Origin: Acidimicrobiales bacterium
GTDB lineage: Bacteria; Actinomycetota; Acidimicrobiia; Acidimicrobiales; Poriferisodalaceae
Direction of reading: 5' to 3'
Assembly: GCA_965116715.1 (NCBI GenBank)
Contig: OZ220724.1
Location: 156,963 to 220,962 of the forward strand
DNA length: 64,000 bases
Part shown: positions 19,439 to 39,669 of the stretch, one piece after another
Numbering within the stretch: the first letter of the stretch is position 1
How the letters are laid out: every line of letters begins with the position of its first letter
Notes under the pieces: model-generated
The model's input: only the letters and a program-made list of their open reading frames with translations
Databases searched by the model: none
What the model was told of the DNA's origin: nothing
Position numbers and translations under genes: made by a program

Positions 19439-20899
<1,461 letters not shown>

Positions 20900-20961
20900 T
20901 CGTTGCTACGCGTTGAGGCGCCTCGCACGGCATAGGCGGCCGCAGCCGCTACCGTTACTCG

Positions 20962-21029
20962 TGGACGTCACGGGAATCGAACCCGTCGCTGCTTGGCTCA
21001 GAATCCACCAGCGGCACCATGCGACGCCC
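20962..21029 (-). pseudogene. 68-nt tRNA-like element (degenerate tRNA or tRNA remnant)
   Basis: On the minus strand, GGGCGTC pairs 7/7 (one G-U) with GACGTCC. A canonical T-arm (ACGGG-TTCGATT-CCCGT) is present. No canonical D-arm or 5-bp/7-nt anticodon arm can be drawn, and the element is about 5 nt too short. Confidence 0.4.
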
Positions 21030-21050
21030 GATGAGTCAACCGACTCGCTT

Positions 21051-21077
21051 GGGCCGCACCGTGTTTCGGTGCGGCCC
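21051..21077 (-). terminator. 10-bp GC hairpin downstream of the 212-aa island gene
   Basis: GGGCCGCACC-gtgtttc-GGTGCGGCCC, 35 nt beyond the stop at 21112. There is no clear U-tract. Confidence 0.5.
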
Positions 21078-21111
21078 AAGACTTTCATGGCGACATCGTC
21101 TCGATGAGGGT

Positions 21112-21750
21112 TCAGTATGAGTCGATACCTCCGTCGTCGGTCTCATAGACGATGTCCAGGACCGCGTTCAGGGCCGTCAGCCACTTCTCGCGGTCCTCGA
21201 TTTGCCACGAGTCACCTGCCCGCGGGAGTTTGTTGACGAGTGCTTGAATCGCTGGATCGAGGCGTGGGGCCGCTGCTGCAGGCGTCTCCTCGGCTTCGTC
21301 ACGGGTGCGTCCGGGCTTGCGCGTCGTTGAGCGCGTAGCCGAAGCTCGAGGCACCGAGAAGTGGGGCGAGACGCTGACTTCGCAATACTGAGCAGCCTGC
21401 AGAAAGAACCGGATCGCCTTATCGCGAGTGCTGCCGCGGTAACCGAACTCAGTCTCGAACAGTTCACCCAGTTGCTTGCCGGTCCCGCTCCTGCGTGAGA
21501 GTTCCATGGCGGTTCCGTATCGGGCTTCGATGGCCTCGGCCAACCAAGATCGCATCTCGTTCTCGCCCATTCGGACAACTTGACTCAGCCGTTCGGTCGA
21601 AGCGTCTTCCTCACCCATAACGAGGTCGAAGAAGCGCAAAGCGATGAGCAGTTGCGATTGGCCTCCACCAGACATGTTCTTCAAGACCGATGCGTCGATC
21701 CTGCCGGGCAGTTCGTCGGGGGCTTCTGCCATGCGCTGGAGAAACCGCAT
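21112..21750 (-). CDS. 212-aa hypothetical protein (island gene)
   Basis: The ORF is intact in the lower-GC region. A helical N-terminal half (LLIALRFFDLV..., AIRFFLQAAQY) is followed by a charged linker and a short C-terminal domain. It is divergent from the methyltransferase. Confidence 0.6.
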   Translation of the reverse strand: MRFLQRMAEAPDELPGRIDASVLKNMSGGGQSQLLIALRFFDLVMGEEDASTERLSQVVRMGENEMRSWLAEAIEARYGTAMELSRRSGTGKQLGELFETEFGYRGSTRDKAIRFFLQAAQYCEVSVSPHFSVPRASATRSTTRKPGRTRDEAEETPAAAAPRLDPAIQALVNKLPRAGDSWQIEDREKWLTALNAVLDIVYETDDGGIDSY

Positions 21751-22122
21751 GAAAGTAACAAATGCGATGTAGGGCGGTCGCGCCTAGTCAACCTGTACTG
21801 CCGACATCATGACTCCTCGTCTGCCATTTCTGCCATACCGACAGAGCATGGTGCTATCTGCCAGGAGTGGCAACGTTCCCGCAGAATGGCACGAAGTCGA
21901 TCAATCTGCCGTAATCGAGCAGGACGGCTCTGGGTGTCCGCGATCATTTCCGATCCGAATGTCCACGTTCAAACTCACTTGTTCGTCTTTCTCGTACGCA
22001 GCGAGCTGAGCGCGGACAAGCCCTACGTGAACTCGCATGGGCTTGTCGGGGACGCGGGTAGTCGGTTCGTGTAACACCCCATACGTACGTTCGTCAATTG
22101 TCCGCTCGTGCAAGGAGGACCC

Positions 22123-23520
22123 ATGTCACGATCGATAACTCGGTGTGCCGTCGTTGGCCGCCAGCATCACCTACCCGGCATTTGGGTGTCGTCTACGGTC
22201 GGCAATGTGGCTGAGGCTCCTCGACCGCCGACCAACGGCTCGATGAACACCCTGCTTGCGTGCGATGCCCCAGCGCACGATTGGTACCGGTTCGTCCTGT
22301 CGTTTCCGCCGCACCTGGTGCGTGACTACGCGGCTCGGTTTGAGCTTGCGGATGACGCAGTCGTTCTCGACCCCTTCTGCGGGACGGGTACCACGCTGGT
22401 CGAGGCTAAGAAGGCGGGTATCACCAGCATCGGTGTTGAAGCGATGCCGATGTCGAAGTTCGCAGCCCAGGTCAAGACTGATTGGGCGCCTGACCCCGAC
22501 GGTTTGGCCGACCACGCGAATCTCGTCGCCGAGAAGGCGTTGGCGAATCTGGCGGCGGATCGGCTGAGCGATGAGCCGGGTGTTCTGCCGGTTGAGAGCC
22601 GGCAATTGCGCAGCTTGGACTCCGACGCAGCCAAGCTGCTCATCAAGGACTCAATCAGCCCGCTGCCGTTGCACAAGGCACTTGTCCTGCGGGAAGCGCT
22701 CAATGGCGAGCGAGCAGCTGGGTTCACCGGCCATGAACAGCTTGCCTTCGCCCGTGTGCTCCCAACCGAGGTCGGCAACCTCCGGTTCGGCCCTGAAGTC
22801 GGAGTTGGCTCGCGGCGCGATGACGCAGCCGTGGTCGCGCCCTGGCTCGACCGTGTGCTGACTATGACCGATGACCTGCGGATTTTGGGCGCGTGCGACG
22901 GTACGTCTGCGGTAGTAGTTCCAGGAGATGCTCGCGACGTCGCATCGTGCGTTCCAGTCGAGAGTGTGGATGCCGTCATCACGTCGCCCCCGTATCCCAA
23001 CGAGAAGGACTACTCGCGGACAGTCCGTCTCGAGTCAGTGTTGTTGGGTTACCTCACGGACCGGGCAAGCCTGCGAAGCACGAAGCGCGAACTGCTCCGC
23101 TCGAACACCCGTGGCGTCTACCGCGACGACGATGACTCTGCTTGGGTCGTCAACGACAAGCGCGTGCAAGAACTCGCAGCCCAGATCGAGGAACGCCGCA
23201 TTGCTCTCGGCAAGGACTCGGGCTTCGAGCGCATGTACCACCGCGTCACGAAGCTGTACTTCGGCGGCATGGCGCGTCATCTGTCATCGCTGCGAGACGT
23301 ACTGCGACCCGGAGCTCGCCTTGCATACGTCGTTGGCGACCAGGCGTCCTATCTGCGAGTGATGATCCGTACTGGCCAGATCCTCGCCGGTATCGCCGAG
23401 CGATGTGGCTACGAGGTAGAAGGAATCGATCTGTTCAGAACTCGACCGGCCACTGCTACGCGGGACCAGCTTCGCGAAGAAGTTCTCCTGCTGCGGTGGC
23501 CCGGCCCACGGGGCAGGTGA
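22123..23520 (+). CDS. DNA methyltransferase, N4-C/N6-A class, alpha-type motif order
   Basis: AAGGAGG lies 5 nt before ATG 22123. Motif I is VLDPFCGTGTT (22368-22395). Motif IV is TSPPYP (22981-22998), about 200 aa downstream. Confidence 0.85.
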   Translation: MSRSITRCAVVGRQHHLPGIWVSSTVGNVAEAPRPPTNGSMNTLLACDAPAHDWYRFVLSFPPHLVRDYAARFELADDAVVLDPFCGTGTTLVEAKKAGITSIGVEAMPMSKFAAQVKTDWAPDPDGLADHANLVAEKALANLAADRLSDEPGVLPVESRQLRSLDSDAAKLLIKDSISPLPLHKALVLREALNGERAAGFTGHEQLAFARVLPTEVGNLRFGPEVGVGSRRDDAAVVAPWLDRVLTMTDDLRILGACDGTSAVVVPGDARDVASCVPVESVDAVITSPPYPNEKDYSRTVRLESVLLGYLTDRASLRSTKRELLRSNTRGVYRDDDDSAWVVNDKRVQELAAQIEERRIALGKDSGFERMYHRVTKLYFGGMARHLSSLRDVLRPGARLAYVVGDQASYLRVMIRTGQILAGIAERCGYEVEGIDLFRTRPATATRDQLREEVLLLRWPGPRGR

Positions 23521-23524
23521 GGAG

Positions 23525-24364
23525 GTGGCACCACAGAGTGAGACTCTGGCTCAGCGGCTGATCGCCAAAATCTTCGCTGATCGCTACCGACCCGGCATGC
23601 GCGAAGTGCCGTTTCCTCGTGATGACATCGTCGCAGCGGCTGAGGCGCCGGGCGAAGCTCGCCCGAAGAACATCGGCGACATCGTGTATTCGCTGCGCTA
23701 CCGCATGGATCTCCCGCCCTCCCTCCGGGAGGAAGCGCCACTGGGCCATGAATGGGCAATCTTCCCCGGCGGCAACGCCGTCTACGTGTTGCGTCTCGTG
23801 CCGGTCAACCTGATCAAACCGCGCGACGGCCTGCGAGTCGTGAAGCTGCCCGATGCGACACCGGGTGTCATCAGCAGCTACGCGATGTCCGACGAGCAGG
23901 CATTGCTCGCTCGTGTTCGGTACAACCGTCTGCTCGATGTGTTCACCGGACTGGCGTGTTCGTCTCTGCAAAGCCATCTGCGTACGTCTGTCACGATCGA
24001 GAACGCCATCACCGGCAAGCCAAGCAGCTCGCAGGTCGAGACGGACGAGCTGTACGTGGGGCTCGATGAGCACGGTGCCCACTACGTCTTGCCGGTGCAG
24101 GCCAAGGGTGGCAGCGACGCGCTGAGCGTCATCCAGATTTGGCAGGACTTCCGCGTTGCTGAGCAGAAGTTTCCCGAGCTTCGGCCGCGACCCGTAGCAG
24201 CGCAATTTATGGACAACGACGACATCGCGCTCTTCGAGTTCAGTGAGCACGATGGGGAGATCACGATTGAACGTGAGCGCCACTACCGGCTGATTGAACC
24301 CGATGAGCTCTCTTCGGAAGACCTACGGTCCTATCGGGCGGCATCCGAGTCGGCAAGACACTGA
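23525..24364 (+). CDS. putative type II restriction endonuclease (PD-(D/E)xK-like)
   Basis: GTG lies 4 nt after the methyltransferase stop, with GGAG in between. The string ETDELYVGLDEHGAHYVLPVQAKGG (24036-24112) fits a D...(E/Q)xK nuclease core. No family name could be assigned by eye. Confidence 0.55.
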   Translation: MAPQSETLAQRLIAKIFADRYRPGMREVPFPRDDIVAAAEAPGEARPKNIGDIVYSLRYRMDLPPSLREEAPLGHEWAIFPGGNAVYVLRLVPVNLIKPRDGLRVVKLPDATPGVISSYAMSDEQALLARVRYNRLLDVFTGLACSSLQSHLRTSVTIENAITGKPSSSQVETDELYVGLDEHGAHYVLPVQAKGGSDALSVIQIWQDFRVAEQKFPELRPRPVAAQFMDNDDIALFEFSEHDGEITIERERHYRLIEPDELSSEDLRSYRAASESARH

Positions 24365-24623
24365 GCGAAGCAGGCAAACGCCAGCCTTCGTTGGACACCC
24401 CGAAGTGCAGAGCCAGTCAAGCCGCATGCTGCGATTCGGCCGATGGGGATCCGGCGGACTGGCCGAGCATCATGCAGGTGACGGAAGCCTGGTCCGAGGC
24501 CAGAACCCACCGAATTACTTGGGTGGTGGAAGGTATTCGTCCACCTGAGAGGTTTCCTGACGTGACATTCCGCGGTTGCGCTGGTGACGGGGACCAGAGG
24601 TCCACAGCTATCTCACGCTCCGC

Positions 24624-27125
24624 CTAACGATTGCCGCTCCGCTTCCTGGCCTGTTGCTTGGCGGGCTTCGTGTCGTTCATCTCTTCGATGGACTTGAGCC
24701 CGGCCTCCTCGACTAGGGCGTCGAGTTCTGGGTCCTGGCTTGGGGGCGAATTGTCATAGACACCTCCGACTGGTCTCAACCCGTCACTCGAGCCGAACAC
24801 GATGGCCGCGCCGAATGCACATTGAAGCTGGTGCTTCTTGAGGAAGACATATGCCTCGATGCGCTCCGCGTCGGCTTCCGAAGCAAACGCTCGCGGCAAC
24901 GAAGTGAGCACGATCACGTGGCTTCGATCCCGACGGTCACCGGCGGCGATGGTGAAGCTGTGACTCTTGTCGTCGTCGGCTGTCAACTGCCTCAACCGGC
25001 CGATCATGGCCCCGAATTCTTCCTGCTCGTCCGTTGAGTAGCTGAGCAAGGTCGCGCCGATGTTCAGCCATCCGGGCGATTTCCGCCGCGCAAGATCGTC
25101 GATGACTTGCGCGACGGTCGGGTCGATGGGCAGCGCCGGACGCTCAGTAGGCACTTCTCGACGTCCGTAGCGATACGCGAACCAAGCGTCGAGATCGTCG
25201 GTTCGGCTGAACAGAAACCGAGGCACCTGCTTGTTGTACTGATCGCGGTCTGCTTCATCGGGCGCGCCTAGCTGGGGCAGCTCTGCAAATCGCTGGTCCG
25301 GGTCTGGGTTCACATACAGGCCGGTGGTCAAGAACTCCATGAACAGGTCGAGTTCGTCCATTGAGTAGTTGAACCTCGTTGTGTCGGGTTCGGTGCGGCG
25401 CCGTAGATACAGAACGAACTCAGACGGCCTCTGGACGACTTCGCTGATGACGCGCAGGTCTTGAAGCGAGACAGTCCATGGCACGGCATCGTCGCTCAGC
25501 AGCCCGTGGTCGATCAAATCGCTCGTCGTTGTCACGAAACCCGAGGTGTCCTCAAGTGTCATAGCGACGAGGAGTACTTCGCGTACATGACTCAGGTCGA
25601 GCCACGTATCGTCACGAAGGCGAAGCCCGCCATCGTTGGAGATGCGTTGCCTCAGCCGCTTCGCTTGCTCAGCGGCGCGTGTGATGAGCTTCGATAGGTC
25701 TTGTCTCAGGAGCGTCGGATCGCCGCTGCGGGCATCGGGCCGCAACGAACCTGACTTGGCCTCTACAACGACCGCTATGTCGTCGGCGAGCAGCACCGCA
25801 TCGGTTTCGCCCACGCTGGTGTAGCCCGCTGGGCCGGCAGCTGGCTCGTCGGTGCCTTCGACGGGCACGAAATACCGGATGTTTCTGTGGACGTCGGTGG
25901 CTGAGAGCAGCCCGGCCAACAGCTCGACGGATCGCTGCTCCAAGTACTTCGCCCGATGATCCGAATAGGTGCGCCATCGCTCCGAGTCCGCTCCCGACTT
26001 CGCAGCGGGTTTGAGAGCGGTCTCGATCCTCTCGCGTATGCAGTGAATGCCGTTCACACCGTGGGGGAGCACGGTCTTGCCGTCTCCGCTCGACAGCAGC
26101 GGTCGTATCCGCATCGGGGACTGCGACTCGAAGAACTGCTGCGCAGCTTCGTTCGGATCACCGCTTGTGTCGCTGTACACGAAGCAATCCACGACGGCTG
26201 CGACCGCGTCGATGCCCAGGTCAGCTTCCTCGGCGAGCTCGAGCACGTCGAAAGCTGATGCATCAGCGACATCGGCGATGAGTGCTGCGAACTGCTGACG
26301 CTGCGCGCCATCGTCGAACCCGCCAGATGTCTTGCTGATGAGTCGCCGCAGCCGCCAGCAGACTCGAGCCAAGAACCCCAGCCGGTTCACTGCCATCCCG
26401 GTGCGTCCGGCCAAGTACAAAGCAAAGGCGCGATCTCCGATGCGTTCGACTGCGTCGAATACCGCGCAAGCATCCTGCACCGTGAATCCGAGCTTGTCGG
26501 TGCAAACTTGTTCGATCTCAGCCGATCCAAACAGGCCGGCGAGTATCTCTCTTGCAATGTGGTCATGCGTGGGATTGCGGAAGTAAATCTCCTTGCCCCG
26601 CGCGTTCGAGGCCACCATGCCAAGAGGGGCGTCGGCATTGGTCGTGACAATGAAGTTTTGCGCCGCCTCCTGCCGGAACCGAAGCGACGCAAGGTCCACG
26701 ATCTCAACGGCTGCTGACAGCAACGAATCTTCTCTGTCTGGGCGTGCCGCGCCAGAGCTGCCTGATGCGGCGACTATCAGTGAGATGAGCTCGACCGTGG
26801 CCACCGTCCCCTCGTGGGTCGACTCTCGGAATGTGTTGGGGTCATGCGCCAATTCCAAGATGCGCACGACAGTCAGTACATGGAATGGGTCGAATGGTCG
26901 CGCCAGCTCAGCAATCGCCTCAACGGCCGCGCGTGCATCTCGTGATAGCGCCTCCATGCAGTCCTCGACGCGCGAATGGGCGCTCGCGTAGTGGCGGAGC
27001 AGCCTCTGGTGTTCCTGAAACCGTCTCAAGATGAGATCCTCGGCACCCGGAGTCAGACTCACGATGCCCTGCGGCGGATCACTCGCCGGGGAACGCTGCC
27101 GATTTAGCGACCACCTTGTCACCAC
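24624..27125 (-). CDS. 833-aa orphan protein with a central NERD-like PD-(D/E)xK motif
   Basis: A single long ORF in the lower-GC region. The string VGETDAVLLADDIAVVVEAKSGS (about 25745-25815) resembles the NERD nuclease core. No Walker A motif was seen. The start codon is uncertain (GTG 27125 or downstream). Confidence 0.65.
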   Translation of the reverse strand: MVTRWSLNRQRSPASDPPQGIVSLTPGAEDLILRRFQEHQRLLRHYASAHSRVEDCMEALSRDARAAVEAIAELARPFDPFHVLTVVRILELAHDPNTFRESTHEGTVATVELISLIVAASGSSGAARPDREDSLLSAAVEIVDLASLRFRQEAAQNFIVTTNADAPLGMVASNARGKEIYFRNPTHDHIAREILAGLFGSAEIEQVCTDKLGFTVQDACAVFDAVERIGDRAFALYLAGRTGMAVNRLGFLARVCWRLRRLISKTSGGFDDGAQRQQFAALIADVADASAFDVLELAEEADLGIDAVAAVVDCFVYSDTSGDPNEAAQQFFESQSPMRIRPLLSSGDGKTVLPHGVNGIHCIRERIETALKPAAKSGADSERWRTYSDHRAKYLEQRSVELLAGLLSATDVHRNIRYFVPVEGTDEPAAGPAGYTSVGETDAVLLADDIAVVVEAKSGSLRPDARSGDPTLLRQDLSKLITRAAEQAKRLRQRISNDGGLRLRDDTWLDLSHVREVLLVAMTLEDTSGFVTTTSDLIDHGLLSDDAVPWTVSLQDLRVISEVVQRPSEFVLYLRRRTEPDTTRFNYSMDELDLFMEFLTTGLYVNPDPDQRFAELPQLGAPDEADRDQYNKQVPRFLFSRTDDLDAWFAYRYGRREVPTERPALPIDPTVAQVIDDLARRKSPGWLNIGATLLSYSTDEQEEFGAMIGRLRQLTADDDKSHSFTIAAGDRRDRSHVIVLTSLPRAFASEADAERIEAYVFLKKHQLQCAFGAAIVFGSSDGLRPVGGVYDNSPPSQDPELDALVEEAGLKSIEEMNDTKPAKQQARKRSGNR

Positions 27126-27447
27126 CCCAACATAGAGAAGTCGTGCCGCGGCAGCCTGAAGAATTATGCGTACGCGGACGTCGATGTAGCGGCGTTAGCG
27201 CAAGGCACGCAATGGAGGACATCTGGACGAAATCCTGTTTCGCTTGGCTGGCCGGTTCAGACGGGTCGGTGGTCGCCGGCCCGTCGTACGTGGCGACCAG
27301 AGTCCATCTCAAGTGCGTGGCCAGATCGATCAGGTCGCCTTCAGATCATCTTCAGGACGCGCTGCCGGGGACACTGATCAGCAACTCTCACGCGGGAACA
27401 GCGACGTCGGCCTCGCCCGAATTTGCAGTTCGTAACATTCGCCGCTC

Positions 27448-27966
27448 ATGCGGCGGCCTGAAATCACCAACCTCTATTCCTGCGAGTTCTCACCAACCCG
27501 CAATCGATTGTTGCTCAGCGTCGTAGTGGCACTCGTCATGACGACGGCAGTCGGCTGCACACCTCCGGCAACTCCTCTCGACCTAGTGAACGTCGATGTG
27601 GAGGTCGCTGGCCCATCGGTCGAACGGTGCAACATCGAGGGTGAAGCGTTCAAGGCAGCTGCGGAGCATGCCGACGCGGTGGACCGCAGAGCCAACGATG
27701 AGGCAGCAGTGCGGGAGCTTCTGGACGAAGCCGAGCGCACTGGCGACTACGGCAGGGTGAACGGTCTGCTGCTCGAACACGTGGCAGCGTTCGAGGGATC
27801 AGCTGTAGCGATGACGCGAGCCGTTGACATGTGCTCATCGTTCTGGAAGCAGGATGAGATCGAAGCTCTGCGAGACAGAATCGAACTCATCGAGCAAACG
27901 ACCCATGATCTCTGTCTGCTATACGACCTTCTCTACTCAGAACATGGGTTGGAGCTCGAATGCTGA
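27448..27966 (+). CDS. putative lipoprotein (helical, Cys-containing)
   Basis: A signal peptide with lipobox (LLLSVVVALVMTTAVGC) is followed by a helical acidic domain. Confidence 0.5.
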   Translation: MRRPEITNLYSCEFSPTRNRLLLSVVVALVMTTAVGCTPPATPLDLVNVDVEVAGPSVERCNIEGEAFKAAAEHADAVDRRANDEAAVRELLDEAERTGDYGRVNGLLLEHVAAFEGSAVAMTRAVDMCSSFWKQDEIEALRDRIELIEQTTHDLCLLYDLLYSEHGLELEC

Positions 27967-28150
27967 CACCGGACACGGTTCTGTCCGATGGCTGTTCGCT
28001 ATGGGCGGCCAGCTGATCAACCGCGGCGGTAGGCCGACCCTGCGGCCCCCTGGCTGGCGGCCTTGGGCCACAACCTTCAACATCGCGCACCCACACATAC
28101 TCAGCTTGCTCCAACGCTGCTGAGCGACTTCCCAGCGCCAAACAGCGCGG

Positions 28151-30415
28151 CTAGGCGGACCTACTCGCGGTGCCGTTGCGGAAGCCGTCGAGGATGTCGT
28201 TGAACGTGGTGCTGGGCCGCATGGCGGCTTCGGCGAGCGCGGGATCGGGCAGGTAGTAGCCGCCGAGCTCGACTGGCACGCCCTGGCACTCCACGAGCTC
28301 GGCGAGGATCTGACTCTCGTTGGCCGCCAGTGCAGCCGCCAGCGTGGCGAATCGCTCTGCGAGATCGGCGTCGGTCCCTTGGCGGGCCATCTCATCGGCC
28401 CAGTGCTTGGCGAGATGGAAATGGCTGGCCCGGTTGTCGGGCTCGTTCACCCGACGGCTCGGAGCACGGCCCTCGGCCAGCCAGGTGCCGATGGCAGCGT
28501 CGAGCGTGTCCGCGAGCAGCTGCGCAGCGGCGTTGCCGGCCACCCGGGCGAGATGCTCGAGCGAGACCGCCAGTGCGAGGAACTCGCCCAGGCTGTCCCA
28601 CCGCAGGTGGTTCTCGGCCACCATCTGCTGCACGTGCTTGGGCGCCGAACCTCCGGCACCGGTCTCGAAGAGGCCGCCGCCTGCCATGAGCGGCACCACC
28701 GACAGCATCTTGGCCGAGGTGCCCAGTTCGAGGATTGGGAACAGGTCGGTGTTGTAGTCGCGCAGCACGTTGCCAGTCACCGAGATGGTGTCCTCGCCGC
28801 GCCGGATGCGTTCCAGCGAGAAGCGACACGCCTCGGCAGGCGCCAGCGTGCGGATGTCCAGGTCGCCAATGGTCGGGTCTGCACTCCGGCGCTCGCCCAG
28901 GCGGGCGTTGACCTTGGCGAGGAGCTGCCCATCGTGAGGCCGGTCGGCATCCAGCCAGAACGCGACCGCAGCACCAGTGAGCTGGCCTCGTTCGACGGCC
29001 AGGTCCACCCAGTTGGCGATGGCTGCGTCCTTGGTGGTGCACATGCGCCAGATGTCGCCTTCGGCGACCTGGTGGCTCATCAGCACCTCGCCCGATTCGG
29101 TGACGACGCGCATGGTCCCCGCGGTGTCGATCTCGTAGGTCTTGTCGTGGCTGCCGTACTCCTCGGCTTTCTGTGCCATCAGGCCCACGTTGGGCACCGA
29201 TCCCATGGTCGTGGGATCGAATGCGCCATTCGCACGGCAGTCGTCGATGACTGTCTGGAACACGCCCGAGTAGCTGGAGTCGGGGATGACGGCCTTGGTG
29301 TCCTGCTGGTTGCCCTCGGCGTTCCACATCTGGCCCGACGAGCGGATCATTGCCGGCATGGACGCGTCGACGATGACGTCGCTCGGCACATGCAGGTTGG
29401 TGATGCCGCGGTCCGAGTCGACCATGGCCAGCCTGGGGCGCTCGGCGAGCGTGGCGGCGATGTCGGCCTCGATGGCCTCGCGCTGTACTGCGGGCAGCGA
29501 TTCGACGGCGGACAGCACGTTCGCCCAGCCGTCGTTGGGGTCTGCGCCCGCCGCGGCGAGCGCTTCGCCGTGCCGGTCGAACACCGGTGCGAAGAACGCC
29601 CGCACGGCATGCCCGAAGACGATCGGGTCGGAGACCTTCATCATGGTGGCCTTCAGGTGCAGCGAGAACAGCACGCCGCCCGAGCGGGCGTCGGCAATCT
29701 GCTCGTCGAGGAACTCGCGCAGTGCGGCGACCGACATGAAGGTGGAGTCGACGACATCGCCGGCACCTACCGGGACCTTGCGCATCAGGCGCACGTTCCC
29801 CTCGTCGTCCACGTGCTCGATGCTCAGTGAGCCTGCACCGTCTGCGGTGACCGACTGCTCATTGGAGCGGAAATCGCCGCCGGACATCGTCGACACGTGG
29901 CTGCGGCTCTGCTGCGACCAGGCGCCCATGGAGTGGGGGTACTGGCGCGCGTACTCCTTGACGGCGCGGGGCGCGCGGCGATCGGAGTTGCCCTCGCGCA
30001 GCACCGGGTTCACCGCCGAGCCCTTCACGCGGTCAAAGCGCTCGCGGATCTCATGCTCGGAGGCGTCTGCGGGGTCGTCGGGATAGTCGGGGACTGCGTA
30101 GCCCTTCGATTGCAGCTCGACGACGGCGTCCTTGAGCTGGGGGACCGAGGCGGAGATGTTCGGCAGCTTGATGATGTTGGCGCCGCGATCGTGGGTCCAC
30201 TCGCCGAGTTCGCCGAGCGCATCGCCGATTCGCTGGTGGGGCTCGAGCATGTCGCCGAAAGCCGCGATGATCCGCCCTGCCAGCGAGATGTCGCGTGTCT
30301 CGACGTCGATGCCTGCGGCATCGGTGAACGCCGTGATGATCGGCAGCAGCGAGTAGGTGGCCAGCGCCGGTGCCTCGTCGGTGTGCGTGTAGACGATCTT
30401 CGATGTCGAGTTCAC
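28151..30415 (-). CDS. icd: monomeric NADP-dependent isocitrate dehydrogenase
   Basis: It is 754 aa long. The N-terminus [21 protein letters not shown] is typical of monomeric IDH. Confidence 0.9.
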
Positions 30416-37634: not shown

Positions 37635-38222
37635 GTGGCCGGCCAGGACGCCGATCGCATCGTGTCCTGGACCGCGATGGAGCACGGGACGGCCGAGGAC
37701 TACGAGTTCCTGGATCAGCAGCACTACGCACACGTCCGATCCGGGCTGGTCGACAACCTGCTGAACATCCTGCAGTGCCTACGCGGACCCACGCTGGGCT
37801 ACCCGATCGATCGCTACGACCACAGCCTGCAATCGGCAACGAGGGCGCTGCGGAATGGCGAATCGACGGACCTGGTGGCCGCGGCCCTGCTGCATGACAT
37901 CGGCGACGCCTTCGCGCCGGAGAATCACAGCGCCGCCGGCGCCGCCGTGCTGCAGCCCTATGTCGACGAGCGCACCCACTGGGTGATCGCCCACCACGGG
38001 CTCTTTCAGGGCTACTACTACTTCCACCACCTCGGCGGCGACCGCGACGCCCGCGAGCGGTACCTGGGATCACCCCACTACGACGCCTGCGTGGATTTCT
38101 GCCAGAACTACGACCAGAACTGCTTCGATCCGAAGTACCCCAACCTGGCGGCAGAGGACTTCCGCCCTCTGCTCGAAGAGGTCTTCAGCCGCCACTCACA
38201 ACTTCCCGCCACTGCCCCCTGA
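37635..38222 (+). CDS. HD-domain protein of the PhnZ/MIOX-like (possible di-iron oxygenase) type
   Basis: HSLQSATRALRNGESTDLVAAALLHDIGD parallels the HSLQ...ALLHDLG motif of PhnZ-type HD proteins. The C-terminal part has YDQNCFDP. Confidence 0.65.
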   Translation: MAGQDADRIVSWTAMEHGTAEDYEFLDQQHYAHVRSGLVDNLLNILQCLRGPTLGYPIDRYDHSLQSATRALRNGESTDLVAAALLHDIGDAFAPENHSAAGAAVLQPYVDERTHWVIAHHGLFQGYYYFHHLGGDRDARERYLGSPHYDACVDFCQNYDQNCFDPKYPNLAAEDFRPLLEEVFSRHSQLPATAP

Positions 38223-38262
38223 TCTGAACGCGGCCAGCACGGCCATCACAGGCTGAGTCGCT

Positions 38263-38652
38263 TCACCACAGGGTGGCGATGGGGAACTCCCCGAACGCCC
38301 GGTCGGCGGTCACGAGGGTCAGCGATTCGCGCTCGGCCTGCGCTGCCAGCATCCGGTCGAACGGATCCTTGTGTGCAGCGTCATAGCTGCCTGCCATCAG
38401 TGCTTGCTCGTGTATGACTGGAAGATGCAAGAAGCCGTCTGCGGTGACTGATGCGCCGAAGTGTGGAACGAGGTCGCTGAATTCACCCAGCCGGTCCATC
38501 CTCGCCTTGGTTGCCATCTCCCATGCGCTCACGGCGCTCGCAAACACCAGGGTTTCCTCGTCTGAGATCGCTTCGCGGGCGACTGCTGAGAGTGACGGAT
38601 GATCAGCCCACCACCACAGCAGCGCATGCGTGTCGAGCAGGAGGTCGTTCAT
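38263..38652 (-). CDS. vapC: type II toxin VapC (PIN domain)
   Basis: The sequence LLLDTHALLWW...DPFDRMLAAQA...LVTAD carries PIN acidic residues. Its ATG overlaps the antitoxin stop (ATGA). Confidence 0.85.
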   Translation of the reverse strand: MNDLLLDTHALLWWWADHPSLSAVAREAISDEETLVFASAVSAWEMATKARMDRLGEFSDLVPHFGASVTADGFLHLPVIHEQALMAGSYDAAHKDPFDRMLAAQAERESLTLVTADRAFGEFPIATLW

Positions 38653-38891
38653 TCGCCCTCCCAAAGGGCGAGTTCATCGTCAGGCAAGGGGTCGAAGAAC
38701 TCCGGCGGGATCTTGATCCCGCGAAACCTGCCAGGCATCCGCCGGGTTGGCGCAGGCACGTACGGCACGAGGCGGGCACACGGCTTGCCCGCCCGCGCTA
38801 TCACGATCTCCTCACCCGCCTCAACTCGGCTGAGCAGCTTCGACAGGTGCGTCTTGGCTTCATGCACATTCACGGTGTGTGATCGTTCCAC
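38649..38891 (-). CDS. Phd/YefM-type antitoxin
   Basis: VNVHEAKTHLSKLLSRVEAGEEIVIARAGKPCARLVP is a typical Phd/YefM N-terminal domain. Confidence 0.8.
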   Translation of the reverse strand: MERSHTVNVHEAKTHLSKLLSRVEAGEEIVIARAGKPCARLVPYVPAPTRRMPGRFRGIKIPPEFFDPLPDDELALWEGE

Positions 38892-38940
38892 AGACTTTCA
38901 GCCCTTTCAAATGATTTTCATTAGTCGTGTCGTTATAAAC

Positions 38941-38961
38941 TTAGTCTAATGACTAGACTAA
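38941..38961. promoter_or_regulatory. palindrome in the AT-rich region upstream of the TA operon (candidate antitoxin operator)
   Basis: TTAGTCTA-atgac-TAGACTAA lies 50-70 nt upstream of the antitoxin start, in the only AT-rich patch of this neighbourhood. Confidence 0.4.
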
Positions 38962-39045
38962 TACCCGAAACGCGCTATGGATCATTCTCAGAACGCGCTG
39001 TGGCGCGTCGCGGGGCCAGCGACACTGCTGCTGGGCAGTGGCGGG

Positions 39046-39669
39046 CTAGAGGCGGGTGATGGTGTCGCCGGCGCGGACGGTGCCGGGCTGGACGACACGG
39101 CAGTTGACGCCTCGCATGCGCAACGCCTGGCCTTCGCCGGTGTTCACGAAACGCAGGGCGTCGCGGCCGAAGCGGGCGGCGAACTTGGCGCAGCCTCGGT
39201 GCGGCTTCGCCGTGACCTCCAAGATGGCGTCGCCGAGCCTCAGCTGGGTGCCGGCGGCCAGCGTGGAGTGGCTGATGTCGAGGTCCGCGTAGATCTGATC
39301 GCCGGCGAGCGGCCAGCGTTCGACCGGTCCGATGACGGCGGCTGCCGCGCGAGAGCTCATGATGGTGATCTGGGCGTCGGGGTGCGGTCCGCCGTCGGGC
39401 GATGTCGGTGAGCCCCGCTGGTCCCACGTGTCGCCCGCGATGCCTTGGGCGTGACTGATTTCGGCCTCTTCGAGCACCTCGCGGGCATCCTCTGCAGGGC
39501 GCCGCACGATGAGTTCGATCGTCCCGCCGTCGGCGGGCGCCTCGCGAATGTGACCGAGCGTTGCCTCCAGCTCGGCCGTGCTGCGGTGGCGGGCCGGAGC
39601 GCCGCCCGCACTCCCGGCGGCGGTGGTGGTTGCTGCTGGTGCGCTCATCGATGTACTTCCCGAAGTCAT
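39046..39669 (-). CDS. MOSC domain-containing protein
   Basis: The C-terminal motif KPHRGCAKFAARFG...RMRGVNCRVVQPGTVRAGD is a MOSC beta-barrel motif. Confidence 0.8.
   Translation of the reverse strand: MTSGSTSMSAPAATTTAAGSAGGAPARHRSTAELEATLGHIREAPADGGTIELIVRRPAEDAREVLEEAEISHAQGIAGDTWDQRGSPTSPDGGPHPDAQITIMSSRAAAAVIGPVERWPLAGDQIYADLDISHSTLAAGTQLRLGDAILEVTAKPHRGCAKFAARFGRDALRFVNTGEGQALRMRGVNCRVVQPGTVRAGDTITRL

Follow-up and report, generated by a model that had tools for sequence, protein, structure and literature searches.

Why does a block of low-GC genes sit between argG and icd, two core metabolic genes, in an Acidimicrobiales bacterium (assembly GCA_965116715.1, contig OZ220724.1), and were these genes acquired together, acquired piecemeal or simply inherited? 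We addressed this question in a stretch of 64,000 nt (positions 156,963 to 220,962 of the contig), referred to below as the window, in whose coordinates all features are given. The block comprises five genes, encoding a 212-aa protein, a type II DNA methyltransferase, a restriction endonuclease (REase), an 833-aa protein and a predicted small lipoprotein of 172 aa. The initial annotation, made from the sequence alone, had suggested an acquired defence island. That suggestion is supported by profile matches to a restriction-modification (R-M) system, by composition, by plasmid-borne relatives of the REase, by a duplication of the end of argG and by 80 other argG loci that lack the genes. We conclude that the block is probably a composite, horizontally acquired defence islet lodged between argG and icd.

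The low-GC block and its borders

The block had been described as a lower-GC stretch of about 21.1-28.0 kb, rich in A/T-ending codons, and both windowed GC and the GC content of third codon positions (GC3) bear this out. GC is 0.613 across 21000-28150 against 0.681 in the remainder of the window, and no other 7150-bp window is as poor in GC (the minimum starts at 21001; the windows have a mean of 0.671 and an sd of 0.020). In sliding windows, values of 0.65-0.72 outside give way to 0.56-0.64 within approximately 21.0-28.1 kb. GC3 tells the same story: it is 0.695 for the 212-aa gene, 0.707 for the methyltransferase, 0.736 for the REase, 0.722 for the 833-aa gene and 0.659 for the 172-aa gene (the lowest of the five), compared with 0.858, 0.853 and 0.879 for the core M20 peptidase, argG and icd genes respectively. 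The placement between argG and a monomeric icd agrees with the Pfam matches of these two genes, which are convergent with the block wedged between them, and the five genes were found as first described. The features, from left to right, are:

19511-20899, plus strand: argG (argininosuccinate synthase; PF00764 and PF20979), the left core flank
20858-20899, plus strand: left copy of a direct repeat (attL-like), the argG 3' end including the stop codon, from repeat comparison
20962-21029, minus strand: tRNA-like RNA element, recognised by its fold (7-bp acceptor stem and canonical T arm, GGTTCGATTCC)
21033-21046 and 21048-21080, minus strand: two hairpins 3' of the 212-aa gene, the first of 5 bp and the second a perfect 14 bp, from folding
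21112-21750, minus strand: gene for the 212-aa protein, DUF5343-related, the left-most gene of the older module
21751-22107, no strand: intergenic region separating the divergent 212-aa and methyltransferase genes, the lowest-GC stretch (0.56-0.57)
22108-23520, plus strand: type II DNA methyltransferase of the N6/N4 family, 470-aa open reading frame (ORF) (PF01555; PADLOC MTase_II)
23525-24364, plus strand: type II REase, 279 aa (PADLOC REase_II PDLC03404)
24438-24468, plus strand: right-hand repeat copy (attR-like remnant), cut short at its right end, from repeat comparison
24624-27125, minus strand: gene for the 833-aa protein (longest ORF), with a central PD-(D/E)xK core
27448-27966, plus strand: gene for the 172-aa predicted small lipoprotein (signal and lipobox-like ...TAVGC read from the sequence)
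28151-30415, minus strand: icd, monomeric isocitrate dehydrogenase (PF03971, E=0), the right core flank

Pfam gave no match in the 212-, 279-, 833- and 172-aa products, and only methyltransferase families in the methyltransferase.

No direct repeat flanking the block had been seen at first. Closer comparison overturns this for the left half, which is bracketed by a shuffle-supported duplication of the argG 3' end. Of the direct repeats in the region that occur in two copies, the longest pairs 20858-20888, within the end of argG, with 24438-24468, which lies 74 nt past the REase stop (27/31 identical). The same duplication is found in L085, one of the related loci considered below, where the 47-nt spacer between REase and icd holds CGGCGGGCTGGACGAGCTCGACACCTAGCCG. 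This sequence is identical to the window argG 3' end, stop codon included (20872-20902), at 29 of 31 positions and to the end of L085's own argG at 26 of 30; the L085 copy is complete, and 5 bp separate it from the stop of icd. In shuffle tests, the score was reached by 0/5000 shuffles in each of the two L085 comparisons. The window copy was equalled by 1/5000 when compared with the spacer between the REase and the 833-aa gene, and by 0/500 when compared with the whole 3.8 kb. Together, the two copies span at least 45 bp of the argG terminus. Read as sequence, such a duplication appears to be the signature of site-specific integration into a gene 3' end, and because the argG end is found on both sides, the module at 20.86-24.47 kb is probably an att-bracketed insertion. 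The window's right copy ends after ...CTGGCCGAGC, exactly where strain-specific DNA begins, and it is for this reason that we take the right half to be a later arrival that disrupted the right repeat.

The history that we propose thus has two steps. The first part (approximately 20.86-24.47 kb) would be what is left of an element that had inserted itself at the 3' end of argG, duplicating the last 30-45 bp or so of the gene to give att-like repeats, and carrying as its cargo the tRNA-like RNA, the terminator hairpin, the 212-aa protein and a complete type II R-M pair; the integrase would since have been lost, while the module would have been kept at the same site under purifying selection. The second part (approximately 24.47-28.15 kb), made up of a 2.65-kb cassette with the 833-aa gene and the separate small lipoprotein gene, would have arrived later, interrupting the right repeat. 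Under this model, an empty site would have a single copy of ...CGGCGGGCTGGCCGAGCTCGACACCTAG abutting the icd stop.

Two related Ilumatobacteraceae genomes, reached via homologs of the 212-aa protein, carry the same site (loci L084 and L085/L086), with core proteins 90-92% (M20), 91-95% (argG) and 88-91% (icd) identical in comparison with the window. In L084 the order is icd, REase, methyltransferase, a 231-aa homolog of the 212-aa protein, argG and M20; the REase and icd stops are 42 bp apart and the 833-aa and 172-aa genes are absent. L085/L086 has the same trio, with a gene for a 647-aa AAA_15/AAA_21 protein (L085 7537-9480; L086 4158-6101) inserted between the methyltransferase and a 228-aa homolog of the 212-aa protein. 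In PADLOC this protein matches OLD best (8e-20), and GajA, AriA and PtuA more weakly. The trio is therefore present in all three genomes, the OLD-family gene only in the L085/L086 interval, and the second part, with its 833-aa and 172-aa genes, is specific to the window genome. It had been proposed that conservation of the block in synteny would speak for ordinary core genes: such conservation is indeed found for the 212-aa, methyltransferase and REase genes, and not for the 833-aa and 172-aa genes. Since the trio has the same order between argG and icd in two related genomes, we regard it as an old acquisition that has been retained, and the extra nucleases as lineage-specific additions made at two different points of the argG-icd interval. 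With an OLD-family nuclease at another point of the interval in a relative, the site behaves as a defence hotspot.

The retained genes have kept their distinct composition. GC3 of the trio stays low (0.68-0.74) in all three genomes, with a gap of 0.12-0.22 between the shared island genes and the adjacent genes in each. The shared island genes are under purifying selection, their ratio of nonsynonymous to synonymous divergence (dN/dS) being 0.07-0.10 (REase 0.07; 212-aa gene 0.07-0.10). Their dS runs from 0.97 to saturation, against 0.33-0.81 for core genes, and the excess is strongest in the REase, where dS is saturated (about 2.6) across the three genomes; that of the adjacent methyltransferase is 0.6-1.0, with dN/dS equally low in the two. 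High dS could result from weaker codon bias or from exchange of alleles of the module between lineages, and the contrast between REase and methyltransferase points to a mosaic history inside the R-M module.

Beyond these genomes, 80 more distant Actinomycetota argG loci, taken with 10-kb flanks, contain neither icd, nor the M20 gene, nor any island gene, and the arrangement is clade-specific. A metagenome scan with the 212-aa family alignment recovered only two distant loci and no new variants of the hotspot. The closest argG matches, at 81% identity or less, are Ilumatobacteraceae and Ilumatobacter metagenome-assembled genomes, and the window sequence itself recurs in an ENA metagenome contig of 3.66 Mb and in a JGI metagenome.

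How well does the locus fit the known pattern of att-flanked islands that target gene 3' ends? It shares with them a target-end repeat at both borders, foreign composition, defence cargo and cargo that varies between relatives. Several points nonetheless weigh against the acquisition of the block as we have described it. As had been seen at the outset, there is no integrase: Pfam searches of the five block proteins and ten small intergenic ORFs revealed no integrase, excisionase or transposase. The repeat has decayed to 27/31 in the window and can no longer be detected in L084. No empty argG-icd site was recovered among the argG loci examined, which leaves integration as an inferred event. No direct or inverted repeats were found around the second part that would indicate how it was inserted. 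Finally, with dS of the REase and 212-aa genes far above that of core genes, the shared module may have been exchanged between lineages rather than simply inherited.

Some other parts of the window also have low GC. A patch at 38200-39200 falls to 0.57 at 38600-38999 and has only short ORFs at 38.2-39.0 kb, and 1-kb windows at about 49001, 52501 and 55501 have GC of 0.62-0.63 against the window mean of 0.67.

The 833-aa protein and its cassette

The largest gene of the block had been considered an orphan. Word-indexed searches returned only five close homologs (57-100% identity), and the same five were obtained when the search was repeated with a broad alignment. An exhaustive profile search of 1.84 billion cluster representatives gives a very different picture: with 2342 clusters at E<=1e-3, 1395 at E<=1e-10 and 387 at E<=1e-30, the family numbers thousands of clusters. 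Its members are mostly 750-850 aa in length and match end to end (other gene callers start the window gene later, giving 812 or 777 aa). Public annotations label them 'hypothetical protein' or, on some Streptomyces plasmids, 'preprotein translocase subunit SecA', which is probably a mis-annotation; SecA-labelled Streptomyces homologs are also among our hits H18-H21.

Sequence searches with the window protein against Pfam, PADLOC, NCBIfam, PHROGs and the PDB gave no match. Conservation within the family is more informative. Across 49 sequences, reaching down to 23% identity, E396, D442, E455, K457, Q487, R490, D556, L557, E591, D593 and P663 are invariant, which amounts to a nuclease signature of the form D-x12-ExK with further conserved acidic residues; the PD-(D/E)xK core comprises E440, D442, E455, K457 and Q487. 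AlphaFold2, supplied with the 49-sequence alignment, produced a model with a mean predicted local distance difference test score (pLDDT) of 87.3 and a predicted template-modelling score (pTM) of 0.88; a model from a 5-sequence alignment (pLDDT 40.6) was set aside. The retained model has an all-helical N-terminal domain (approximately residues 28-410), a central alpha/beta core and a mixed alpha/beta C-terminal domain, and D442, E455 and K457 are borne on predicted strands 437-447 and 450-457. Foldseek found no global match to the model in PDB or BFVD at E<=1e-3. Local matches, all with E above 1e-3, were to the small subunit of R.BspD6I (probability 1.0, target-normalised TM-score 0.53), Can2, Cas4 SSO0001, VC1899, McrC and viral Cas4/RecB-like proteins. 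Motif and model together place the 833-aa protein in the PD-(D/E)xK superfamily as a predicted nuclease.

Can the protein be assigned to a known family within this superfamily? It had been called NERD-like, and this holds at the level of the core, in that the restriction-endonuclease-like fold with its D...ExK motif is common to NERD proteins (PF08378) and the model. Membership of the NERD family was rejected, the window protein having no match to the Pfam profile at E<=0.1; two of the 49 relatives match it weakly (best E = 1.2e-3). A further difference concerns HEC-02, a NERD system that needs an ABC ATPase partner, in contrast to the single, large 833-aa protein. In PADLOC, one relative weakly matches CARF_PDDEXK and another PtuA. 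Eight of the 49 weakly match the NCBIfam model antiphage_GapS1 (NF047931; best 8.4e-6, 14-18 bits against a cut-off of 320), and these matches are confined to profile positions 214-357 of 455, which correspond to the nuclease core. Membership of GapS1/GAPS1 was likewise rejected: the window protein itself has no match, and its 833 aa compare with a model of 455 positions.

Of the analogues studied by experiment, GAPS1 is the closest. It is a single PD-(D/E)xK protein in which D313 and K328 are essential, and it is triggered by the T7 capsid protein and causes dormancy (bioRxiv 10.1101/2023.03.28.534373). Like GAPS1, the 833-aa protein is encoded by a stand-alone gene found in mobile islands, and the catalytic Asp and Lys are 15 residues apart in both (D313/K328 and D442/K457), in addition to the weak GapS1-core matches of its relatives. 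It differs in its large extra N- and C-terminal domains, which have no counterpart in the PDB. By analogy, the 833-aa protein may be a self-contained sensor-effector nuclease. The N-terminal helical region and the C-terminal domain would sense a cue of infection, upon which the D442/E455/K457 nuclease would degrade nucleic acid and so stop phage replication.

The gene also appears to move on its own. DNA homology between the window and five other loci (among them L081, L093 and L094) is restricted to 24635-27279, that is, the 833-aa ORF and 90-155 bp upstream of it, and the flanks are different in every locus. On this comparison, 24635-27279 is a single-gene mobile cassette of 2.65 kb. In the window the 833-aa gene is convergent with the REase gene. 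Elsewhere, most of the contexts examined are defence or mobile-element neighbourhoods. Homologs are found near a giant NACHT/AAA_16 protein, transposases, DUF4238 and DUF6602 (L081); near a GmrSD-like gene (PADLOC HEC-05/PDC-M55C) and a Schlafen/AlbA_2 protein (L082), with a second, independent GmrSD_N neighbour in L092; and beside a RES toxin (L093), a PifA-like KAP NTPase (L099, 1e-56), NACHT and TniQ (L107) or Wadjet JetC and JetD, a serine recombinase and DUF4238 (L108).

Plasmids carry several further homologs. On plasmid pGKT2 of Gordonia sp. KTR9 (L097, NC_018580.1 103474-115649), a 33%-identical homolog lies between HmaA (E=0) and HmaB/HmaC, its start overlapping the HmaA stop. This is of interest in that Payne and colleagues found genes embedded in Hma to be active against phage in seven of nine cases tested (bioRxiv 10.1101/2024.01.29.577857), and the pGKT2 homolog has the same 'guilt by embedding' configuration as these Hma-embedded candidates (HEC/PDC). 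It differs from them in that the 833-aa family is outside the PADLOC v2.0.0 models and in that the window copy is beside a type II R-M system, not in Hma. On the Arthrobacter plasmid p2MP the homolog is beside a relaxase and MobC, on a Mycobacterium plasmid it is between insertion sequence (IS) elements, and on a linear plasmid of Streptomyces goshikiensis (L109, NZ_CP115938.1 867-3221) it is the first annotated gene at the end, near ParA/ParB.

Three patterns among the homologs may be recorded here. On three linear plasmids (H17-H19) the match is no more than about 3.3 kb from the plasmid end. DUF4238 lies a few kb or less from homologs in two loci that are independent of each other, one metagenomic (L081 17517-18758) and one from Micromonospora (L108 14351-15343), and may be a recurrent neighbour of the family. 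Finally, an unannotated gene follows the homolog on the same strand in two loci, encoding 447 aa in L081 (12364-13707, with a 4-bp overlap) and 310 aa in L082 (10488-11420); neither product has a PADLOC match, and the window has no equivalent gene.

Taken together, the conserved motif, the predicted structure and the neighbourhoods make the 833-aa family a credible new candidate for defence. A more specific proposal, which we put forward tentatively as a serious possibility, is that it represents a new and widespread single-protein anti-phage or anti-plasmid family in which structurally unprecedented domains gate a GAPS1/NERD-like PD-(D/E)xK nuclease, and which spreads as a 2.65-kb cassette into defence hotspots, even into Hma operons. 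There are observations that count the other way. The role in defence is that of a candidate, based on neighbourhood and on predicted fold. PADLOC-DB v2.0.0, including its HEC and PDC models, has no match for the 833-aa protein (nor for the 212- and 172-aa proteins). A scan with the family alignment found no relatives in viral contigs. Moreover, the plasmid neighbours, namely relaxase, partition genes and linear ends, also fit a plasmid or mobile-element function.

This last point leads to the alternative that best survives the evidence, namely that the 833-aa protein is a nuclease serving the biology of mobile elements rather than immunity, present in defence islands only as an accessory gene. 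Plasmid maintenance, the processing of transferred DNA, telomere or recombination functions and competition between elements are candidate roles. Its occurrence on actinobacterial plasmids, next to the p2MP relaxase and MobC, at a linear Streptomyces end and between the IS elements of Mycobacterium, is what such a nuclease would lead one to expect, and the missing PADLOC match also fits this candidate role. Yet most of the examined contexts hold recognised defence genes, and the pGKT2 homolog is inside an Hma operon. The gene travels alone, in a cassette that includes the region upstream of it, as is typical of stand-alone defence genes, and in the window it is chromosomal, with plasmid functions absent nearby. 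On balance we consider a purely mobile-element role unlikely, though well short of negligible.

The 172-aa gene, which shares the second part with the 833-aa gene, lies outside this cassette. Its product has no match in the loci with 833-aa homologs or in plasmids, and searches of Pfam, PADLOC, NCBIfam and PHROGs gave only a sub-threshold similarity to Lpp/OprI (14.6 bits against 43).

The restriction-modification pair and the 212-aa protein

That a methyltransferase and a nuclease partner form an R-M pair had been proposed from the sequence, and PADLOC and Pfam profiles confirm it. The methyltransferase matches PF01555 (N6_N4_Mtase) at 41.4 bits (cut-off 26.7), PADLOC MTase_II (PDLC03224) at 1.2e-33 and a phage methyltransferase family (phrog_18146) at 7.9e-34. 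Its probable start is the ATG at 22123, and other gene callers give a protein of 465 aa. In the translation, motif I (DPFCGTGTT, residues 88-96) precedes the SPPY motif (ITSPPYPNE). The order of the motifs and the gap of about 200 residues between them suggest an alpha arrangement, and SPPY suggests methylation of N4-cytosine, both readings resting on general knowledge of methyltransferase motifs. The REase gene starts 5 bp past the methyltransferase stop on the same strand, and its product aligns with PADLOC REase_II (PDLC03404) from position 7 to position 259 of the 260 in the profile (3.9e-96); a PDB sequence search gave nothing relevant for it.

Relatives of the REase at 45-49% identity (tblastn) are carried by 4-5 kb plasmids of Klebsiella and Salmonella, by a Paracoccus plasmid and by a Sinorhizobium replicon, and one of the small plasmids has a ColRNAI-type replicon. 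Because these relatives sit on plasmids and replicons of other bacteria, the pair is best regarded as a predicted, horizontally circulating type II system. It resembles the type II systems of PDLC03404 in having two adjacent, co-oriented genes, a methyltransferase with motif I and SPPY, a separate REase of about 280 aa and plasmid-borne relatives in other phyla. It differs in that no controller (C) protein was detected (the ten intergenic ORFs gave no Pfam match to a C protein, an excisionase or a helix-turn-helix domain), and in that it travels with a DUF5343-related 212-aa gene and a tRNA-like RNA. The methyltransferase would mark a short motif on host DNA, and the endonuclease would cut incoming DNA that lacks the mark; self-methylation and cutting of unmethylated DNA are established for the class and, by analogy, expected of this pair. 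As a defence islet with a type II R-M system, the locus is ordinary.

R-M systems may also persist for selfish reasons, and one may ask whether the first part is mainly an addiction module, its R-M pair being kept by post-segregational killing. Consistent with this, the pair has persisted long (dS close to 1 or higher) with no mobility genes, and the related REases are on tiny plasmids (4-5 kb), a setting that is usually explained by addiction. However, addiction and defence are not mutually exclusive and are inseparable by sequence data, and the fact that more genes of defence type have gathered at the site suggests that immunity has been selected for. We therefore regard addiction as the main reason for the module's presence as improbable.

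The third member of the trio is harder to place. The 212-aa protein has no match in Pfam, PADLOC, NCBIfam or PHROGs, and a set of 5.8 billion proteins yielded nine homologs. The most distant of these (P0014, 36% identity, linked at 1.7e-12) matches DUF5343 (PF17278) at 2.4e-8. The likeness to DUF5343 therefore consists in this match and in a common core, GSTRDKAIRF, which is invariant in the 212-aa family alignment, whereas the window protein itself falls below detection by the profile. DUF5343 has no mention in the literature searched, and a regulatory or DNA-binding role for the 212-aa protein is a guess. In the divergent intergenic region, two motifs, TCTGCCATACC (21829-21839) and GTTCCCGCAGAATGGCAC (21875-21892), are conserved in all three genomes, even in L085, where the facing neighbour is the OLD-family gene and not the methyltransferase. 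Judged by this conservation, the motifs may be the promoter or operator of the 212-aa gene.

No relatives of the 212-aa protein were found among plasmids or phages, and an association with mobile elements emerges instead from the loci of its homologs: a relative of about 50% identity adjoins an IS1595 transposase (L106), and the family as a whole is tied to mobile elements and is not specific to R-M systems. Two of its loci deserve description. In L091 (9112-11002), a 51%-identical relative has on one side a truncated integrase of the phage type (161 aa) and on the other a genuine tRNA-Arg(CCT), the 3' end of which points towards the relative. A DDE transposase is close by, and the arrangement resembles the border of a classical island integrated at a tRNA. 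In a contig from Hainich groundwater (L087, 1-20738), the DUF5343-matching homolog lies in a phage- or plasmid-like locus. Its companions there are a GH108 lysozyme, a methyltransferase-Mrr/NA-iREase1 fusion, an HNH gene and a protein of 4508 aa that combines SLT, ResIII/AAA_34 and helicase domains.

The tRNA-like element and the history of the site

A tRNA-like element and a strong hairpin had been noted at the left edge of the block. The element did not prove to be a true tRNA: ARAGORN reports no tRNA gene in the window, and Rfam offers nothing better than tRNA-Sec, with 18.4 bits where the gathering score is 47 (Rfam was searched on 8 kb at E<=1 and then on 221 nt at E<=10). What does stand is a conserved tRNA-like fold. 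In the minus-strand fold, the acceptor stem and T arm are accompanied by a 3-bp stub in place of the D arm and by a long, imperfect anticodon-like arm with an 8-nt loop. The element is unique within the window, and a scan of viral contigs found no instance of the pattern. Kinship with the tRNA-Leu downstream of argG in other family members was also considered and rejected, as the two do not align.

The strong hairpin is borne out by folding. The 14-bp hairpin (-30.6 kcal/mol, z = -7.5, with none of 200 shuffles equally stable) starts 31 nt past the stop of the 212-aa gene, and both hairpins are upstream of the tRNA-like element on the same strand. The 14-bp stem is invariant across the three genomes and its loop variable. 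The hairpins are likely to be the terminator of the 212-aa gene; no U-tract follows the 14-bp hairpin, which we infer to be a factor-independent, I-shaped terminator.

The segment of about 130 nt that contains element and hairpins is far better conserved in L084 and L085 than the spacer around it. None of the 42 predicted pairs is lost in any of the three sequences, and two of them show compensatory changes (C-G to U-A and U-A to C-G), though three sequences are too few for covariation statistics. The element could thus be a functional non-coding RNA of the R-M module, the less likely of two novel readings of the locus. The argG-type repeats enclose it, and its 5' end points to the island; for this reason we consider it cargo and not the attachment site.

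A different view would make the tRNA-like element the true integration site, and the block a classical tRNA-targeted island whose tRNA has decayed. An acceptor stem and T arm are intact at the island edge, as this view would have it, and in L091 the relative of the 212-aa protein has a truncated integrase on one side and tRNA-Arg(CCT) on the other. However, the island is on the 5' side of the element, while tRNA-targeting integrases insert on the 3' side, and the window has no second copy of the element's 3' half. The element is also inside the argG-type repeats, is unlike the tRNA-Leu found downstream of argG elsewhere in the family, and shows compensatory changes that fit a functional RNA rather than a decaying relic. 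Integration at this element is accordingly very unlikely. Slimmer still are the prospects of ordinary vertical inheritance of lineage-specific genes, with low GC3 reflecting low expression and no island at all: it would account for a trio that is syntenic between argG and icd in three genomes and under strong purifying selection, with no mobility gene found, but not for the second copy of the argG 3' end that two genomes have beyond the trio, the GC3 gap to adjacent genes in all three, REase homologs on plasmids of Proteobacteria, the absence of the trio from the 80 other Actinomycetota argG loci, or cargo that differs between genomes (833-aa and 172-aa genes here, an OLD-family gene in L085).

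With integration at the argG 3' end as the preferred reading, the locus illustrates how defence genes accumulate at a single site of the chromosome in a little-studied lineage of actinobacteria (Ilumatobacteraceae), where an old R-M module at the end of argG has had different nucleases added to it in different genomes. Its main value lies in the 833-aa family, which is large, is absent from Pfam, NCBIfam and PADLOC, and combines a confident model with a clear catalytic motif and consistent defence neighbourhoods; it is on the strength of these last three that the protein is a ready candidate for experimental testing. Should the proposed function prove true, the family would extend single-protein PD-(D/E)xK sensor-effectors of the GAPS1-like kind into Actinomycetota.

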